Source: an uncultured Clostridia bacterium
Lineage (GTDB): Bacteria > Bacillota > Clostridia > UMGS1883
Direction: 5' to 3'
Assembly: GCA_947626145.1 (NCBI GenBank)
Contig: CANQRB010000004.1
Coordinates: 29,250 to 93,249 of the forward strand
DNA: 64,000 bases
Below, piece after piece: positions 13,093 to 34,067 of the stretch. Numbering within the stretch: position 1 is the first letter of the stretch; every line of letters begins with the position of its first letter. The notes under the pieces are model-generated. The model made no database searches. It saw nothing but the letters and a program-made list of their open reading frames with translations, and was not told the DNA's origin. A program made the position numbers and the translations under genes.

Positions 13093-13404
13093 CTATTCTA
13101 ACTTTTTTTGATAATCGCTTTTAGCATAAACGACTCTCGTAACAGTTATCAGCTTCTCGCGCTCATCCACACGATAAAACATAATATAATTCTTAATCAG
13201 CAGTTTACGGTACTCATATTTTAAAGTTTGGAGTGGGCGATAAACAGGCATGGAATACGGAAAAACTCTGATTTTTTCCGCTTCGGTTATAAACTCCTCA
13301 GCTAACCGTCCGGCCGCAATGGGATTTGATAATGTTTTGCCGATATATGTCACAATGTTAATCATATCCTGTTGGGCGATAGGCTGAAACTCCAAATCAT
13401 ACAT
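13093..13404 (-). CDS. RelE/ParE-family type II toxin
   Basis: About 100-aa protein matching the ParE/RelE plasmid-stabilisation toxin pattern; ATG shares an 8-nt overlap (ATGTATGA) with the antitoxin stop. Confidence 0.75.
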   Translation of the reverse strand: MYDLEFQPIAQQDMINIVTYIGKTLSNPIAAGRLAEEFITEAEKIRVFPYSMPVYRPLQTLKYEYRKLLIKNYIMFYRVDEREKLITVTRVVYAKSDYQKKLE

Positions 13405-13675
13405 TTTCGGTTTCTCCAATCGCCTCGCGCATATTTTTCAAGACTTCTTTTGGTGAAAACCGCTTGTTTGTCATTTCCGCCTCATACTCCGCCTCCTTAA
13501 GCTTAAAGTACACTTCGCTTTCAAACTGAAGATTTTCATAAGCTTCCATACTCATAACAACCATGTCGCCAAAACCGTTTTTTGTTAAGAAAACGGGCTG
13601 CTTTGTTTCGTGGACTGTCTTGGAAATATCCGCAAATTTATTTCTTAAGTCCGAAACGGGTCTTATTAAATTCAT
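13397..13675 (-). CDS. Phd/YefM-family antitoxin
   Basis: MNLIRPVSDLRNKFADISKTVHETKQPVFLTKNGFGDMVVMSMEAYENL is a classic Phd/YefM N-terminus; RBS AGGAGG 7 nt before ATG. Confidence 0.75.
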   Translation of the reverse strand: MNLIRPVSDLRNKFADISKTVHETKQPVFLTKNGFGDMVVMSMEAYENLQFESEVYFKLKEAEYEAEMTNKRFSPKEVLKNMREAIGETENV

Positions 13676-13704
13676 AAAAATTCCTCCTATCATATTATGA
13701 TTGT

Positions 13705-13728
13705 ATTTTAGCACAATTATGCTAAAAT
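13705..13728 (-). promoter_or_regulatory. 24-bp near-perfect palindrome (ATTTTAGCACAATTATGCTAAAAT) overlapping the putative TA promoter (TTGCAA-17-TAAAAT); likely antitoxin operator
   Basis: 22/24 palindromic. The -10 TAAAAT and -35 TTGCAA, read on the minus strand, overlap it. Confidence 0.45.
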
Positions 13729-19069: not shown

Positions 19070-19744
19070 TTATGCCTGAGTCGCGGCGTCCGTCTTGACT
19101 CTGCGGAAGCGCACCAGACCCGTACGGTGAAGGGCAACCATTATTGCCGGGATAAGCACAAGTTGAAGTATTATTCCGGGGATGGCGTTAAGCACCGCAG
19201 TCTGCGCAGGACAAAAAACCTGAAAAGATGTCGATTTCGCCTGACTTTGTTGGTCTATGTTGCATGGCGATCCGCTTCTGTGCAAGCTCAAAGATTTCTT
19301 CGTCAATTAACGGCTCATGCGTATTAGGTAAGAAATAGCGTTGTTCTGCCTCTTTTTCGACTTATACGAAACCTTGTGTGTTTTCTCAGTGATGATATGC
19401 CCTAAATACTTTTACCGTGTCAGGATGTCAAACAGCGTTTTCTCCGGCCATGTGTAAGGAGCGATCAAGGCTTTCTGATGTCGCGCATTCCTCGTCCGCT
19501 CATAACGTAATGCACCGATTGTCAAAACCTTGTTGTCGTCAAGCCATCGCTGAATATCGCACATCTGAGTATCCTTCACATACATGACGAAAATCTGCTT
19601 GACTATGAGATGTATCCGTATGGATATTCCCCGTTGACGTGCTCGCCCTTTTGAGTCCGCGCCTGCTTTGCGGCTCGGTGGTTGTCGCTCGGCATATTCT
19701 CTCGGATATGTGTCATGGCACACCCGCCGTATGGCTCGGCGCAA
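19070..19744 (-). pseudogene. Low-confidence gene fragments: a C-terminal membrane-protein remnant at 19070-19306 and an unidentified remnant at 19412-19744, inside a 2.4-kb region with no intact long ORF
   Basis: Only short, mutually overlapping ORFs on both strands; mixed GC; no RBS-supported starts. Confidence 0.2.
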
Positions 19745-22089: not shown

Positions 22090-22401
22090 AGGGGATGATG
22101 CCGGCAATTTCTGACGCAACAAGCACCCCACCCCTGTGGTGGCCGGGTAGTGTTTAACTTCGAAATAAATCAATGAAATCATTAGTAATCTTATAACTTC
22201 TCCCTTGATTTATTCCGTTTCATCCGATCCCATTTTTGCAGCAGCCTCTTTATAGAAACATCCAAATATCCAATATAATTTTGCCACCGTAAAATCCGCT
22301 TATGATAGGGGCCTTCCTTTCCAAAAAACTTGTTGGATTGATACCGTCTCTGCCGCTTCTCACAAATCATGATAGCAGAGAAATCTAAACTGAAACGAAA
22401 C
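22090..22401 (-). pseudogene. Degenerate partial duplication scar: copies of the relQ-operon promoter motif, the GT8 3' end and the pgsA-like 5' end, fused and decayed
   Basis: 22300-22401 aligns to 24640-24725 (promoter/leader of the SAS gene). 22105-22290 aligns to 22830-23100 with indels. No intact ORF. Confidence 0.55.
22369..22401 (-). promoter_or_regulatory. Copy (a) of the shared promoter motif, in the degenerate duplicate: GTTTCGTTTCAGTTTAGATTTCTCTGC-TATCAT on the minus strand
   Basis: Matches the motif at 24693-24725, 28689-28721 and 31643-31676. Confidence 0.4.
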
Positions 22402-22414
22402 TGTCTTTTTTCTT

Positions 22415-24692: not shown

Positions 24693-24725
24693 ATGATAGC
24701 AGAGAAAACTAAACTGAAACAAAAC
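24693..24725 (-). promoter_or_regulatory. Copy (b) of the shared promoter motif upstream of the SAS-GT8-PgsA operon: GTTTTGTTTCAGTTTAGTTTTCTCTGC-TATCAT on the minus strand
   Basis: Conserved TTTCnTTTCAGTTTAG block, then 8 nt, then a -10-like hexamer, at fixed spacing; 65-100 nt upstream of the start codon. Confidence 0.55.
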
Positions 24726-24726
24726 A

Positions 24727-24758
24727 ACGACGGACCCTTCGAAAAAGAAGAATCCGTC
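24727..24758 (-). terminator. Candidate terminator of the Hsp70 operon (gacggattcttctttttcgaagggtccgtc then TTGTTTTGTTT on the minus strand), abutting promoter motif (b)
   Basis: Nested hairpin followed by a T-rich tract in the minus-strand direction. Confidence 0.35.
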
Positions 24759-24818: not shown

Positions 24819-26588
24819 TCAAGCTGCAAGGCAGCGAGCGTTGGCGCTGGATTGCTCCAGCCGGTCAGATGCTGCTTTGATTGCAGCCATCTCACTTTCA
24901 GTTACGGTTTCCGGTTTATATTTGCCAAGCAACTTTCGTAATGCAGAACAGTCTTCTTTAATCTGCTTTTTTTCTTCTTTTTCAAGCTGCTTCCCAACTT
25001 TGTGCAATGCCTGTTCAGCTTCTGATAATACCTTCCCTGCGCGATTAACCATTTCTAAAGAGTTACGGCGAACACCATCCTGTGCCGCATACTGTTCCGC
25101 ATCGCGAATCGCCTGTTCAATCTCCGCATCGGACATTTTATCATTGTTCGAAATGGTAATAGACTGTGCTTTCCCCGTATCCAAATCTCTTGCGGACACT
25201 TTTAAAATTCCATTGGCATCAATGTCGAAAGTAACTTCAATCTGCGGCACTCCTGCGGGGGCTTTCTTAATTCCGTTAAGTTTGAATTTGCCGATGGTCT
25301 TATTATCGCGTGCCATTGGCCGTTCTCCTTGTAGAACATGAATTTCCACACTGCTTTGAAACGGTGCCGCGGTTGAAAAAATCTGTGAATAGTGAATGGG
25401 CAAAGTGGAATTTCTCTCCACAAGACGTGTTGCGACACCGCCTACTGTTTCAATAGAAAGGCTGAGAGGGGTAACATCCAAAAGAAGGATACCGTTTTCC
25501 GAACCGGCAATCTGCAGCGAACCGCCAGAAAGCGTGTCTCCCTGAATGGCGGCGCCCTGAGCAACACACTCATCCGGATTGATATTCTTTGACGGTATAA
25601 TACCGGTCAATTGACGCACTTTTTCCTGAACAGCGGGAATACGGGTTGCGCCTCCGACAAGGATGACCTTGCCAAGTTCGGATGGCGCAATACCAGCATC
25701 ATTCAAGGCGTTCTGTACCGGAATTGCTGTTCGATCCACAAGATCGCGGGTCAGCTCGTTGAATTTGGCACGGGTGAGGATAGTATCAAAGTGTATTATG
25801 CCGTCCTTTTCCTGGGCCAGGTACGGCAGGCTTATCATAGCGTTCTCTGAGCCGGACAGTTCCTTTTTTGCCTGTTCAGCCGCTTCACGCACACGCTGCA
25901 ATGCTACATAATCTTTTTTTACATCTGTATGATACTGCCTCTGAATTTCCGAAATCAAATACTCAGTGATACGCTCATCAAAGTCATCGCCGCCCAAATG
26001 GTTATCACCATTTGTTGCCAGAACTTCTATAACGCCGTCTCCAATCTCAATGATGGAAACATCAAAAGTACCGCCGCCAAGGTCATATACCATGACCTTT
26101 TGCTGTGTTCCGTTATCCAGCCCGTAAGCAAGCGCGGCGCTGGTTGGCTCATTAATAATCCGTTTTACATTTAAGCCTGCAATTCGCCCGGCATCTTTTG
26201 TGGCCTGTCGCTGAATATCGTTAAAATAAGCGGGTACAGTGATGACCGCGTCCGTCACTTCCTCTCCAAGAAAGGCTTCTGCATCCTTGCGCAGTTTTCG
26301 TAGAATCATTGCACTGATCTCCTGCGGCGTAAATCTTTTACCGTCAATATTGATAGTCCAATCCGTCCCCATGTGACGTTTCACAGACGAAACGGTTCGG
26401 GACGCATTAGTAACCGCCTGTCGTCTTGCCGTTTCACCCACTAACCGTTCACCGGATGCGGTAAAAGCAACAATGCTGGGAGTGGTTCTTCCGCCTTGTT
26501 CGCTTGGAATGATAACGGGTTTGCCGCCCTCTACAAAAGCGACGCAGCTATTCGTTGTTCCAAGATCAATACCGATTGTTTTTCCCAC
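24819..26588 (-). CDS. Hsp70-family chaperone, atypical (not in an hrcA-grpE-dnaK-dnaJ context); probable GTG start giving [12 protein letters not shown]
   Basis: Actin-like NBD motifs [13 protein letters not shown] and [12 protein letters not shown], an SBD and a C-terminal lid; RBS AAAGGATGG before GTG 26588. Confidence 0.85.
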
Positions 26589-26605
26589 AGTAATTCCATC
26601 CTTTC

Positions 26606-27406
26606 CTACATACATCTAAGGCAGCCAAATGGGCCGCATAGGAATTGCATGGCTAAAAAGCCAAAACATATTTTTTGTATATTAGTGGCTTCCATATCGA
26701 AGCCTTTTGCATTTTGTTCATAGGTTTGCTCTGAACGGCGAAATTTTTGCAAAAGCAGATGATAGGTGCGATTATTCGGCTCCATTTGTGATGCTCTCTG
26801 CATATGGTCGATTGCCTGAACGGTGTTACCAAGACCATGATTGGCAAGAGCGCTTAAATAATACCACCTTGCACCTCGTCCTACGCTCGGTATACGGGTC
26901 AAAATCCAAATTGCCTCTTGATAGCGATGGTTATTGATTTCAGTAATGGCCTGCCTGATTTCCATATTGTCGCCCGGCTCAGGCTGCGGATTCATAAAAA
27001 CGGCATCATCATTGCCGTTCCGTTCAAATCCAAATCCAAAAATATTCCCAAAGTCAAAGCCGCCAAAATCGCTCGACCAGCCACCCGGACCTCGATAACC
27101 GCCAGAGCCGCCCTGCCTTTCATATCCGGTTCCACTATAACCGCCGTTTTGATTTTCCGTATATCCCCCATATTGCCTACTCTGTCCGTAAGATTGGCGC
27201 TGCTGTGCTCGCCTTGCCTCATACTTCTGCGGATTCATCAACATATCGTAGGCTTCATTCACCGCATTCATTTTTTGGCTCGCGGTCGGATCATCGGGAT
27301 GCAAGTCAGGATGATATTGCTTTGCCTTTTGACGATATGCTTTTTTTATTTCTTCTTTAGTCGCTCCTTTAGGAACGCCCAGAGTTTGATAAGGGTCATT
27401 GACCAT
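26606..27406 (-). CDS. J-domain protein (DnaJ-like N-terminus, Gly/Tyr-rich linker, TPR-like C-terminus)
   Basis: J-domain with HPD ([34 protein letters not shown]); lacks the DnaJ zinc-finger/CTD architecture. Confidence 0.8.
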
Positions 27407-27409
27407 GGC

Positions 27410-28228
27410 TCACTTTTTCCTTTCCGTCTGCATTTGCCGGTTATATTTGATCCAAACGCCAGAATAAAGAATGTTCCTTAAAATGTGGGCGTCCTGGACA
27501 AGCGGCAGCGATTCAAAGGCTTCAGCAGCTTCTCCGAGAATGGTCTTCAGCATGGAGCGGATTTCTTCCTGACTCAGAGTGACAGAAGAAAAAGGATTAT
27601 AACTTCCTTTTTTCTGGTCATGCCTTAAATCAATCGCGGCATCGGCAAGATAGATATACTTTCCGATATGATAACCAAACTTCTGCAAACGCGGCATCCA
27701 GTGATCCGGCTCAACCACAAAAATCGTTGACATCAATCTGCCAAAGCTGTTGGCTGCCGCATCTGGAGAGGCGAAGCAGGATTTCTCAATTTCAGAGATT
27801 TCATTTATTTCCTTTTCGATGATCGAACACTGATCTTTTCTTGCTGCTCTGACTTCTTCATAAGCCTTTTTAAGCAGAGTGGCATAGCACTTGTGGGAGA
27901 TATTTCGATCATCGTTCCAGTCGTCAAGACATTTGAAGTATGTCAAGGCTATTGTCATATCGGCGGCATAGTCTATATATTTACCGGACAGATAATTATG
28001 TTTCTTGCATGGATGCACGGCACATCGCACCGCTTTGCTGGTTTCCTCCGGTTCATACAAGGATGATAAAAACATAGCCAAGAATGTCAGATCGTATGTC
28101 AGTCCCAATCGCGACCTAAATCCATACCTTTCCCCCAACGCATGACACAATCCGCAATAAAAGGCACGATACCGTTCTTTTTCTTCATCAGTAAGACCGG
28201 ATAAATTGGCCTGTATGATTCCAAACAT
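27410..28228 (-). CDS. Conserved hypothetical protein (Cys-containing; in my recollection the kind of DUF found next to non-canonical dnaJ/hsp70 genes in Clostridia)
   Basis: No recognisable catalytic motifs; tightly packed between the J-protein and Zn-ribbon genes (3-nt and 9-nt gaps). Confidence 0.55.
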   Translation of the reverse strand: MFGIIQANLSGLTDEEKERYRAFYCGLCHALGERYGFRSRLGLTYDLTFLAMFLSSLYEPEETSKAVRCAVHPCKKHNYLSGKYIDYAADMTIALTYFKCLDDWNDDRNISHKCYATLLKKAYEEVRAARKDQCSIIEKEINEISEIEKSCFASPDAAANSFGRLMSTIFVVEPDHWMPRLQKFGYHIGKYIYLADAAIDLRHDQKKGSYNPFSSVTLSQEEIRSMLKTILGEAAEAFESLPLVQDAHILRNILYSGVWIKYNRQMQTERKK

Positions 28229-28688: not shown

Positions 28689-28721
28689 ATTTTACAGCAA
28701 GAATCTAAACTGAAACGAAAC
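28689..28721 (-). promoter_or_regulatory. Copy (c) of the shared promoter motif upstream of the ZnR-DUF-DnaJ-Hsp70 operon: GTTTCGTTTCAGTTTAGATTCTTGCTG-TAAAAT on the minus strand
   Basis: Same block and spacing as copies (b) and (d); the extended -10 TGTAAAAT lies about 40 nt upstream of the ATG. Confidence 0.55.
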
Positions 28722-28928
28722 TAAGGAAGAGCTTTCTTCCAGACTATTTTTTCGGTAAGTTCAGTTCTGATAGATTTACTGAATAGCCGCAGAAGTCATA
28801 GACCTACATAAAAAAGAACCTCCACAACGAAGGCTCTCACGGTAAATCTCATATTGGAAGCGGCAGTATGCCTCACAGCACACTGCCACTTTACGCTTCT
28901 CATGCTTAATTAAATGTCCCGCACTATT

Positions 28929-30940: not shown

Positions 30941-31611
30941 ACTTTTTTCACCGCCTTATATCCGAGCCCGCGCACGGATTCGATATCAAATTCTTCCCAA
31001 CCCTCGAACCGTTTGCGGAGCCTGCCGATGTGAACCGTCACAGTTTCCCACCCGGTATCGCTCTCAGCGCCCCAGATTTCATCCATCAGTTGAATCCGTG
31101 TAAAAATCTTTCCGGGGTATGACAGCAATTTATAAAGTAACAAAAATTCCTTTTGCGGGAGTTCTTGTGTCTCGCCGTTTTTGGTCACGGTAAAGGAATC
31201 GTAATCCAAAATTACATTTCCAATCGTCATTTTACGTTCGTTGGCAATTTGAGCGCGGCGTAGAAGTGCTTTGATTCGCCAGAGCATTTCTTCCTCATCA
31301 ATCGGTTTTGTCATGTAGTCGTCAATCCCTAATGAAAAACCTTTATGTTTATCTTCGGGGAGCTGTTTTGCCGAAACCATAAGAATGGGAAGATTGTTCT
31401 TGCTTTCGCGGAGGATTTTTGTAAATTCATATCCGTCCATTTTCGGCATCATTATGTCGAGAATCACAAGGTCAATATACTCTTTATCCATTACATCGAG
31501 GGCGTCTTCACCGTTTTCCGCAGTAAATACAGAATAGTGCTCCGTTTCAAGCACGGCTTTGAGCAGCCGGCGTGTATTTTTATCGTCGTCTACAACAAGA
31601 ATTTGGAACAT
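30937..31611 (-). CDS. OmpR-family response regulator (REC plus winged-helix), 4-nt overlap with the kinase gene
   Basis: Receiver motifs DDD/D55-like (LVILDIMMPKMDG) and T/K; C-terminal trans_reg_C (TVHIGRLRKRF...LGYKAV). Confidence 0.9.
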   Translation of the reverse strand: MFQILVVDDDKNTRRLLKAVLETEHYSVFTAENGEDALDVMDKEYIDLVILDIMMPKMDGYEFTKILRESKNNLPILMVSAKQLPEDKHKGFSLGIDDYMTKPIDEEEMLWRIKALLRRAQIANERKMTIGNVILDYDSFTVTKNGETQELPQKEFLLLYKLLSYPGKIFTRIQLMDEIWGAESDTGWETVTVHIGRLRKRFEGWEEFDIESVRGLGYKAVKKV

Positions 31612-31642
31612 TGTTTACACCTCCTAATAATCAATATAAGAT

Positions 31643-31676
31643 AAGATAACATACAAATCTAAACTGAAAAGAAAGT
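31643..31676 (-). promoter_or_regulatory. Copy (d) of the shared promoter motif upstream of the RR-HK-TauE operon: ACTTTCTTTTCAGTTTAGATTTGTATGT-TATCTT on the minus strand
   Basis: Same block and spacing; sits 32-65 nt upstream of the RR start codon. Confidence 0.55.
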
Positions 31677-32096
31677 GTGCGAGTTTAATCCCCAAAATTT
31701 ATTATTTCGTTCAGCAGGCTTTTTCGCGTCTTTGAGCAACAGCCACATCTTTCCCATTTTATCGACTCCTGCAATACGTCCGGCAAAACAGTAATAATTT
31801 AATCATGCGGGGAGAGATACCCCATTTTTCGCTGCCTATTTGAACGTCATGTAATTAAAATATCGCACCTCCACATATAAAATTATATTTCGTTATCTTG
31901 AAGAAAGCAAGTGCATTTGATGAACATTAGATGAATTATTTACCCTCGCTACTGAAACTGTAAAGACATATCCAAATAAAGAAAGGGACTGTAAAATGGA
32001 TCAATTTCAATAAAGCGGACAGAAAAACATAAGATGGCAGGAAATTATGTAAAATATTCAATATCCATATTTCTCATAAAGTATATCACATAAAAA

Positions 32097-32318
32097 TCAT
32101 AAAAGATATTTGTCTTGATTTTCGATTACATATTGAAGCCATTCCTCTGGAGTAGGAATGTCGTTTGAAGATGGTATTTTTTTCCACTGTGCTCTAATTT
32201 CAGGATTTGAACTGGTCATTCCAAATTTTATTCGCTCTGAAATTATAACTTTAATTTCGTCAACCGTCATATTCCTTTTCTCAGCTATTTCGGCTAATGT
32301 TATTTTTATCTGTTTCAT
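32097..32318 (-). CDS. Small hypothetical protein (73 aa) divergent from the XRE regulator, in AT-rich DNA
   Basis: Strong RBS AGGAGG 6 nt before ATG; no recognisable motif. Confidence 0.5.
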   Translation of the reverse strand: MKQIKITLAEIAEKRNMTVDEIKVIISERIKFGMTSSNPEIRAQWKKIPSSNDIPTPEEWLQYVIENQDKYLL

Positions 32319-32472
32319 GGACCGCCTCCTATTAATTTATTGTTTGTATTATTCCATAATATAACCGTATGCCCTTTGCGGGGCGTATATAATCTACTGA
32401 TTATGACTATTATATCACATTTTTGTGATTTAGAATAGTATTAATAGAAATTATTTTTAGAAGGTTATCTTT

Positions 32473-32787
32473 ATGGATGTACAAAAGCGCATCAGGTAGT
32501 TGATGGCGGAAAGAGGCTGGTCAGACTATAGGCTTGCAAAGGAGTCCAACCTCTCTCACTCAACTATAACGAATATATTCAACAGAAATAACGCCCCAAC
32601 GCTGCCAACATTGGAGTCCGTATGTTCCGCTTTGGGGGTAACCATGTCACAGTTTTTCACTGAAGGCGACGAACCCGTTGTGTTGAGCAGCGAACAAAAA
32701 ATAATACTTGATAGGTTCAACACGTTATCACCGACTCAGAGAAAAGTCATTATTGAACTGCCTGGCAATATGAACAAAGGCACATGA
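32473..32787 (+). pseudogene. XRE-family (Cro/C1 HTH) transcriptional regulator interrupted by an in-frame TAG at codon 9 (32497-32499); an N-truncated product could initiate at ATG 32503
   Basis: ATG 32473 with GAAGG RBS encodes MDVQKRIR-TAG-LMAERGWSDYRLAKESNLSHSTITNIF. The canonical HTH N-terminus spans the stop. Confidence 0.55.
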
Positions 32788-32841
32788 TGTCATAACAAGA
32801 CAGAGACCGGTCGATGAGCTTTTTTCGACATTGCTAAAAAA

Positions 32842-32870
32842 CCTGCATACATTTCTGTGTGCAGGTTTTT
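32842..32870 (+). terminator. Intrinsic terminator after the XRE gene (cctgca-12 nt-tgcagg then TTTTT)
   Basis: 6-bp stem plus T5; A run upstream. Confidence 0.5.
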
Positions 32871-32880
32871 CAAATATAAA

Positions 32881-32994
32881 AATCTAACGATTACTCAATA
32901 ATCCAACGATTACCCCAAAAAACTAACGATTTCCCATAAAACCAACGATTTCCCATAAATCCAACGATTTCCCATAAATCCAACGATTACACGG
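32881..32994. repeat. Iteron-like array: about six contiguous direct repeats of a 19-20-bp unit (consensus CCAACGATTTCCCATAAAT)
   Basis: Units at 32881, 32900, 32922, 32941, 32961 and 32980; the core AACGATT recurs every 19-21 bp. Confidence 0.7.
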
Positions 32995-33079
32995 CGGCGA
33001 GTTAGGATGGATAATTTCCGAAAAGCAAAAACTGCATTTATTGCCTCCGTAAGGTGCGGAAAAATTATGCCGACCATAC

Positions 33080-33107
33080 AAAAAAGCCGATAATATCGGC
33101 TTTTTTG
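33080..33107. terminator. Bidirectional intrinsic terminator (aaaaaagccgat-AAT-atcggcttttttg)
   Basis: Perfect 7-bp GC-containing stem flanked by A6 and T6. Confidence 0.5.
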
Positions 33108-33153
33108 CACAAAGAAAGAACCTTGACTTTGTATCAAAATCAAGGTTCTTATT

Positions 33154-33246
33154 TGGCGGAGAGAAAGGGATTCGAACCCTTGATCGGGGTTAACCGATAC
33201 ACGATTTCCAGTCGTGCGCCTTAGACCAGCTCAGCCATCTCTCCGC
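33154..33246 (-). tRNA. tRNA-Ser (anticodon GGA), class II with long variable arm, CCA encoded
   Basis: Minus-strand read GCGGAGAGATGGCTGAGCTGGTCTAAGGCGCACGACTGGAAATCGTG...GGTTCGAATCCCTTTCTCTCCGCCA: acceptor, D, anticodon (CU-GGA-AA), long extra arm, TΨC GGTTCGAATCC. Confidence 0.85.
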
Positions 33247-33259
33247 GCTGACAAACGGT

Positions 33260-33288
33260 ATTATAGCACATATTTTGCCGTTTGTCAA
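33260..33288 (-). promoter_or_regulatory. Consensus promoter for tRNA-Ser (TTGACA-17-TATAAT on the minus strand), with 8-bp inverted repeats (acaaacgg/ccgtttgt) flanking the -10
   Basis: -35 tgtcaa at 33283-33288 and -10 attata at 33260-33265 in plus-strand coordinates; TSS a few nt before the tRNA 5' end. Confidence 0.55.
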
Positions 33289-33302
33289 GGACTTTTTTCA
33301 AT

Positions 33303-33339
33303 TCTTATATCAAAAATTTATATCTTATATCAAAAATTT
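33303..33339. repeat. 17-bp direct repeat x2 (CTTATATCAAAAATTTA) upstream of the tRNA promoter
   Basis: Two exact copies separated by 3 bp. Confidence 0.6.
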
Positions 33340-33368
33340 AAACAAAATTTAGAAAAGAATTAGGAAAA

Positions 33369-34067
33369 TCATTTACAGGCCTCAACGAAGCTGAGAAGGA
33401 TCTTAAACTGATCCTCATCACCGCGCCAGGAAAATTCCGGGTGCCACTGTACCGCCTGAACAAAGCGTTTCTCCGGACAGTATACGGCTTCGATCAGGCC
33501 GTCGGGAGCGGCGGCCATCGCCTTCAGCCCCGGCGCAAGAGCCTTTATGCCCTGATGATGATAGCTGTTCACACTCAGGATATCCTTCTGCAAAAGATGC
33601 CGCAGCGGTGAACCGGGCACGAGACAGACCTCGTGCCAGCCGCGGTCATAGGGCGGCACCATTTTATGACAGACGGCATCCTCCTTTTGAGACGGGATAT
33701 CCTGATACAGCGTACCGCCCAAGACCGCGTTGATAAACTGTATTCCACGGCATATGCCGAAAACAGGCCTGTCCAGCTCAAAGGCCTGACGGAACAGCTC
33801 CGTTTCCAACCGGTCACGGGGCGGATAGGGAGCGCCGCAGGAGCGCAGCCTTTTCTCACCGTAAAGCGCCGGATCCACGTCCTGACCTCCGGTAAACAGG
33901 AAGCCGGAGCACAGCTCCGCCATCTCCCCCACGCTGTCGGGGTCAAAGGGCAGGATCACGGGCAGCGCTCCGCAGGCCGTCAAGGCGTCCACATACCCCG
34001 GCAGCATCCAGATACTGTCTTTTTCCGTATCAAAAAGGGGCACAACGCCGATAACAGGTTTTTTCAC
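33369..34067 (-). CDS. Class I glutamine amidotransferase-like / gamma-glutamyl hydrolase (peptidase C26, PuuD-like)
   Basis: GICRGIQ catalytic Cys motif and HH near the C-terminus (WHPEF). Confidence 0.8.
   Translation of the reverse strand: MKKPVIGVVPLFDTEKDSIWMLPGYVDALTACGALPVILPFDPDSVGEMAELCSGFLFTGGQDVDPALYGEKRLRSCGAPYPPRDRLETELFRQAFELDRPVFGICRGIQFINAVLGGTLYQDIPSQKEDAVCHKMVPPYDRGWHEVCLVPGSPLRHLLQKDILSVNSYHHQGIKALAPGLKAMAAAPDGLIEAVYCPEKRFVQAVQWHPEFSWRGDEDQFKILLSFVEACK

Follow-up and report, generated by a model that had tools for sequence, protein, structure and literature searches.

A gene for a Cro/C1-type (XRE) regulator in an uncultured Clostridia bacterium is interrupted by an in-frame amber codon, and we consider it a nonsense allele (Gln9, CAG to TAG), with a probability of roughly 0.8, that has left the gene a pseudogene or hypomorph within a decaying remnant of a mobile element. 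Ordinary gene decay, rather than an unusual reading of the genetic code, is the most likely explanation of the stop. The gene lies in a stretch of 64,000 nucleotides, referred to here as the window, and the features under discussion are collected in Table 1. The regulator comes from a conserved divergent two-gene module, in which a partner ORF of about 70-83 aa faces an XRE gene of about 100 aa, and the module in the window is an orphan remnant lying against tRNA-Ser, without an intact recombinase. Translation from the original start, ATG 32473, would end after 8 residues; at most, ribosomes would resume at ATG 32503, 3 nt beyond the stop, and yield a 94-residue protein that lacks residues 1-10. 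That segment includes Ile7 and Leu10, invariant core residues of helix 1, and a protein without it is expected to bind DNA badly or not at all, so that the gene is regarded as a drifting pseudogene or a strong hypomorph. We thus infer loss of function for the amber allele.

Table 1. Features of the interrupted regulator gene and its surroundings (nucleotide positions are those of the window; helix positions are residues of the intact ortholog P0001)
Feature	Position	Strand	Remarks
Recombinase-domain remnant, stop in frame	19125-19341	-	50-84 aa, E = 3e-5
Divergent 73-aa partner ORF, intact	32097-32318	-	conserved partner of the XRE family
Imperfect nested palindrome, candidate operator	32400-32445		in the 154-nt divergent promoter region
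8-codon N-terminal piece of the XRE gene	32473-32499	+	from the sequence; same codons as intact P0001
Amber mutation	32497-32499	+	orthologs CAG (Gln9); C-to-T transition at 32497
94-codon remainder (M11 to T104)	32503-32787	+	possible restart product; ATG 32503 is the conserved internal Met11
Codon 87, CCG (Pro)	32731-32733	+	TCG (Ser) in CAG copies; private to the TAG lineage
Codon 97, CCT (Pro)	32761-32763	+	in predicted helix 7; L, M or I in all aligned relatives
Intrinsic terminator of the XRE gene	32837-32870	+	folding energy -20.4 kcal/mol, z-score -5.97
Six 19-20 bp direct repeats	32875-32990		core CYAACGATT; copy number varies by strain
tRNA-Ser(GGA)	33154-33244	-	with terminator hairpin at 33116-33150
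Helix 1	residues 3-14		P0001 AlphaFold2 model
Helix 2	residues 18-25		P0001 AlphaFold2 model
Helix 3 (recognition)	residues 29-37		P0001 AlphaFold2 model
Helix 4	residues 44-54		P0001 AlphaFold2 model
Helix 5	residues 58-63		P0001 AlphaFold2 model
Helix 6	residues 73-83		P0001 AlphaFold2 model
Helix 7	residues 87-102		P0001 AlphaFold2 model

The first ATG (32473-32475) begins the peptide MDVQKRIR, and the amber codon follows at codon 9. A TTG (32500) and an ATG (32503) stand directly 3' of the stop, and the frame then runs on through AERGWSDYRLAKESNLS to a TGA at 32785-32787. When Gln was placed at codon 9, giving a 104-aa product, Pfam recognized both HTH_26 (PF13443; 45.3 bits against a cut-off of 22, residues 6-62) and HTH_3 (PF01381; 41.8 bits against a cut-off of 23, residues 7-60), and since the match covers residues on either side of codon 9, the domain spans the stop. 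The eight codons 5' of the TAG are the same as in the intact 104-aa ortholog P0001, which argues against a chance origin of this short N-terminal frame. The earlier note had reported an amber codon at this position, with coordinates and a translation that proved exact, and had argued that helix 1 of the XRE fold runs straight across it. An AlphaFold2 model of P0001 (72-sequence alignment, pLDDT 85) bears out this second point, placing the stop in the middle of helix 1, so that the frame of the XRE domain is broken there. The 'good RBS' claimed for the start fared less well: an SD sequence is present (GAAGG, 32460-32464, with an 8-nt spacer), but it is only moderate, with a predicted anti-SD pairing of -4.0 kcal/mol that ranks the start in the upper quarter among all ATGs of the window.

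What did codon 9 encode before the stop arose? When the read-through translation was used as a protein query, 515 relatives were retrieved, and the closest of them, P0001 (96% identical, 104 aa), has Gln at position 9. Its source contigs, L001 and L002, carry CAG at codon 9 in DNA that is otherwise near-identical to the window, and the same CAG allele is found in a Clostridia MAG (L005; CANRJP010000062.1, 'Lapin-021 bin62'). Since protein databases cannot reveal interrupted genes, a DNA-level survey was added, in which codon 9 was read directly in 94 related loci from metagenome and viral contig collections. Gln is encoded in 78 of these (CAG in 53, CAA in 25), with Glu in 8, Lys in 5, Asn in 2 and Arg in 1; TGG, which had been suggested earlier as another possible ancestral codon, was never met among the 94 loci, and none of the 94 has TAG at codon 9 or an early in-frame stop. 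The stop therefore falls inside a conserved domain, at a site that is a sense codon in the orthologs, in agreement with the proposal of a nonsense mutation. Comparison at the DNA level shows the ancestral codon to have been CAG (Gln9), which a single C-to-T transition at 32497 converted to TAG.

The P0001 model has the organization of Cro/C1 (XRE) regulators, a five-helix N-terminal HTH domain followed here by two C-terminal helices, whereas the window copy, unlike other Cro/C1 examples, is interrupted by the TAG. Alignment of 72 family members shows no variation at Ile7 or Leu10 and next to none at Met11. Can anything useful be translated from the part of the gene that follows the stop? Restart at ATG 32503 is mechanistically plausible, and some truncated 94-aa protein may well be made: only 3 nt separate the stop from the restart codon, and an SD-like AGGTAG (32494-32499), 6 nt upstream, has a pairing energy comparable to that of the native start (-3.8 versus -4.0 kcal/mol). 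Bacterial post-termination ribosomes are reported to scan locally and to reinitiate at nearby SD-preceded starts (PMC5972666). Judging from the model, however, a restart product would lack 10 of the 12 residues of helix 1, Ile7 and Leu10 among them, and would probably fold and bind DNA badly, if at all.

An alternative is a functional N-truncated regulator: the 94-aa product of reinitiation at ATG 32503 (or TTG 32500) would be maintained for some retained or new function, the new function perhaps being that of a dimerizing dominant-negative protein acting through helices 6-7. We consider this unlikely, though it is the most serious competitor of the nonsense-allele reading. The near-invariance of Met11 in the family and the intact downstream ORF, identical in the three contigs that carry the TAG, are in its favor, together with the restart signals just described. 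Against it, the same lineage has a proline substitution inside helix 7 (L97P) as well as S87P, none of the 94 relatives starts at Met11 or is truncated at the N terminus, and the identity of three contigs that are only about 0.1% apart carries no information on selection. The more specific idea that a helix-1-less XRE protein, dimerizing via helices 6-7, serves as a natural dominant-negative or anti-repressor, or that the partner ORF has been freed from repression, is a long shot; if true, an active helix-1-less product would account for the persistence of the amber allele in several strains. Amber mutants of lacI restart downstream and yield repressors without the N-terminal DNA-binding headpiece. 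The present gene resembles them in having a very early amber codon in a repressor gene, with an SD-preceded in-frame ATG a few nucleotides on, and differs from them in that restart is here presumed.

The nonsense-allele reading is also consistent with the other substitutions in the gene, some of which, in the TAG lineage, look damaging. Private changes were scored by codon-by-codon comparison of the TAG lineage, L002 and L005. The TAG lineage has Q9*, a synonymous change at R20, E80D, S87P, L97P and an ambiguous codon 78, for totals of one nonsense, one synonymous and three to four nonsynonymous changes, versus three synonymous and no nonsynonymous private changes in the intact L002. Our own Fisher estimate for the contrast of 1 synonymous to 4 nonsynonymous against 3 to 0 is about 0.07, with tiny counts. 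The L005 gene contains both a +1 and a -1 indel (leaving a 63-aa ORF) along with 7-8 nonsynonymous changes, some at invariant positions (P42S, L47S); from the alignment, it is a sister copy broken independently, by indels. Such a pattern would be expected if intact copies were under purifying selection and disrupted ones were drifting, but so few substitutions do not prove that constraint has been relaxed. Because the three TAG copies have identical coding sequences, decay after the mutation cannot be timed.

Only one base distinguishes the TAG from the codon of close relatives, and the source is probably a metagenome assembly, two facts that would suit a sequencing or assembly error with C as the true base. 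Exact look-up of the 94-aa remainder, however, revealed that gene callers had annotated the same protein on two other contigs, L003 (sample ERZ27249252) and L004 (sample ERZ27249118), both of which have the TAG preceded by the same codons as in the window. Recurrence of the same T in contigs from other samples argues that the TAG is not an assembly error, and both contigs also carry the linked private substitutions at codons 20, 78, 80, 87 and 97. Over a collinear stretch of 10,433 nt, L003 and the window are 99.885% identical and differ by 12 SNPs, and by this measure L003 is a related but distinct genome. L004 has a coverage of 1.4x and a downstream flank like that of the CAG-type contig L001, and may have arisen by recombination between lineages or by chimeric assembly at low coverage; solid independent confirmation of the TAG thus rests mainly on L003. 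An exact-pattern scan of a metagenome contig collection for either the TAG or the CAG allele gave no match. Sequencing error, one of the options listed in the earlier note, was rejected on the recurrence of the TAG in the two other assemblies, and we hold it to be highly improbable. Sequence comparison instead identifies the TAG as an inherited allele, segregating in one lineage of an uncultured Clostridia population.

A final possibility is that the TAG is read, whether as pyrrolysine, as Gln by a suppressor tRNA or under a phage TAG-to-Gln code, such that the full-length regulator is made. TAG-recoding phages insert Gln (genetic code 15), which is the ancestral residue here, the gene is of mobile-element origin, and the genome was inspected over 64 kb only. 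Within those 64 kb, TAG is a normal stop: it terminates 9 of the 44 long non-overlapping ORFs, including the GT8, RelA_SpoT and DnaJ-domain genes that neighbor the regulator in the low-GC region, and hence is not avoided as a terminator. When the window was scanned for pairs of long ORFs that share a frame and have one stop codon between them, the stop was TAG in 15 cases, TGA in 44 and TAA in 22, with no excess of TAG. On these two results, genome-wide or island-wide recoding of TAG was ruled out. ARAGORN detected no tRNA in the 64-kb window other than tRNA-Ser(GGA), and an Rfam search of 31500-33400 returned the tRNA alone above threshold. The TAG is not conserved at its site, being absent from codon 9 in all of 97 other copies examined, and the sister copy in L005 decays by indels. 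Considering the stop usage, the pair scan, the tRNA and Rfam results and the lack of conservation, read-through, pyrrolysine insertion or a TAG-to-Gln code is very unlikely, and the programmed read-through that had been entertained earlier is dismissed.

The family to which the gene belongs has a characteristic arrangement. At 86 of the 87 loci with enough upstream sequence, a divergent partner ORF of 68-83 aa lies 134-160 nt upstream of the XRE gene, and the window copy likewise has its divergent partner about 150 nt upstream, across a spacer of 154 nt. The partner family comprises more than 800 proteins, almost always paired with this XRE family. Searches of Pfam, NCBIfam, PHROGs and PDB sequences with the partner ORF returned nothing significant, and the match between its four-helix model and the C-terminal DNA-binding domain of Spo0A is weak and non-significant (Foldseek E = 0.73, TMq 0.59). 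The palindrome in the spacer may be an operator, and the intergenic sequence between the two genes is conserved in part in another locus, L006. One or two large serine recombinases are located within 3 kb of the XRE gene at 50 of the 94 loci, mostly convergent with it and immediately downstream; the one in L005 has Resolvase, Recombinase and Zn_ribbon_recom domains. Fourteen relatives are on IMG/VR viral contigs, and more distant homologs (33-47% identity) occur near the ends of temperate gut phage records, while a search of a plasmid collection produced only distant matches. In Clostridia, the usual neighbors of the module are large serine recombinases that belong to integrated mobile elements or prophages. 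A literature search on the XRE and partner-ORF module found nothing specific. As a separate observation, several 'Ca. Heliusvirales' gut phage records (among them L013, PV036425.1, 468-1420) have the XRE-homologous region split into two or three short overlapping annotated CDSs in place of a single one, which may reflect annotation problems.

Among solved structures, the best Foldseek matches to the model are 3ivp (E = 9e-4), a 'transposon-related DNA-binding protein' of C. difficile 630, and 1b0n (E = 2e-3), SinR of Bacillus subtilis, both of which are among the closest structures at low identity. Matches to C.Esp1396I, SinR and Lp1 protein 11 superpose with an rmsd of 1.3-2.0 over about 61 residues, and profile matches were obtained to SinR and HipB sequences; polyubiquitin matches in the PDB profile search were set aside as repeat-summed artefacts. 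Because identity to known XRE structures is low (17-24%) and TM-scores are modest (0.43-0.54), the family is taken to be a distinct subfamily. Its gene order also differs from that of sinI-sinR, which is co-directional, whereas the partner gene here is divergent. The arrangement is also like that of the switches of phages and ICEs, such as lambda cI/Cro and the ImmR gene of ICEBs1, which lies next to int and is divergent from xis. As in those systems, an XRE-type gene diverges from a small partner across a region of about 150 nt, and in relatives the module adjoins the recombinase of the element; the occurrence of distant homologs near the ends of temperate gut phage records is likewise reminiscent of temperate-phage immunity and lysogeny switches. 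In contrast to lambda and ICEBs1, the recombinases are large serine recombinases instead of tyrosine integrases, the partner protein belongs to no known family, the window copy has lost its recombinase, and the likeness is one of gene arrangement. By analogy, the module may be a cI/Cro-like or ImmR-like regulatory switch of serine-recombinase elements, in which the XRE protein would play the part of the repressor.

How much of such an element is left in the window? The order is partner ORF, XRE gene, terminator, repeat array, and then the terminator and gene of tRNA-Ser. The repeats have the consensus core CYAACGATT(A/T)CC and are present in 6 copies in the window, 5 in both L004 and L001, 4 in L002 and 2 in L005. 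In the closest subclade of relatives, a core of AACGATTAC is repeated 3-4 times, and related arrays are found just past the XRE terminators in L011 (6360-6416), L017, L027 and L036. Since the gene next to the array in L027 encodes a ParB_N-domain protein, the array may be a centromere-like site or perhaps a replication iteron.

The window remains homologous to the recombinase-linked L005 copy as far as 33163, a position about 10 nt within the tRNA gene counted from its 3' end, and this end point marks a boundary of the element at tRNA-Ser. L005 reads TGGCAAAGAG at 1585-1600 and the window reads TGGCGGAGAG at 33154-33163, which is the 3' end of tRNA-Ser, with divergence beyond; the divergence may represent an att-type junction with crossover at the tRNA end. 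The CAG-type contig L001 has the same tRNA-Ser adjacency as the window, which argues that the insertion or rearrangement is older than the nonsense mutation. No intact recombinase was found in the 64-kb window, adjacent to the module or elsewhere, and no att-like second copy of the tRNA end was found within it. The recombinase-domain remnant listed in Table 1, about 13 kb away, may be what is left of the recombinase of the element with which the XRE module arrived. The suggestion that the gene is a regulator from a decaying mobile element is therefore supported, in that relatives adjoin large serine recombinases and the window copy has no intact one. The accompanying claim of an AT-rich island beside tRNA-Ser held for the island and for the tRNA but not for the extent, as the low-GC region is much larger than claimed, spanning about 4.2-33.2 kb at roughly 32-49% GC versus about 58% in the flanks.

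Several other features of the low-GC region were recorded. A pair consisting of a ParE toxin and a Phd/YefM antitoxin is encoded at 13093-13714 (minus strand), and an operon for a DUF5685 protein, a DnaJ-domain protein and an Hsp70 paralog at 24819-28228 (minus strand). The DUF5685 operon adjoins genes for a small RelA_SpoT-type alarmone synthetase, a GT8 glycosyltransferase and a CDP-alcohol phosphatidyltransferase. A motif of about 34 nt, GATAGCAGAGAAATCTAAACTGAAACGAAAC, is present in four copies (22371-22404, 24695-24728, 28691-28724 and 31645-31678). Three of these precede minus-strand operons, namely RelA_SpoT, DUF5685-DnaJ-Hsp70, and a response regulator with a histidine kinase; the copy at 22371 has no assigned downstream gene. 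The motif looks like a shared promoter or regulator-binding site, and its copies perhaps define a regulon of the adjacent two-component system.

The amber allele described here documents a probable, segregating loss of function in a leftover mobile-element regulator within an uncultured gut Clostridia lineage. It also provides a clean negative, in that an in-frame TAG which might have been taken for recoding turns out to be an ordinary mutation. Beyond this one gene, the pairing of an XRE regulator with a small ORF emerges as a widespread, uncharacterized module found beside large serine recombinases; its XRE relatives number more than 500 and its partner proteins more than 800, and in one subclade the module is followed by a repeat array of variable copy number.
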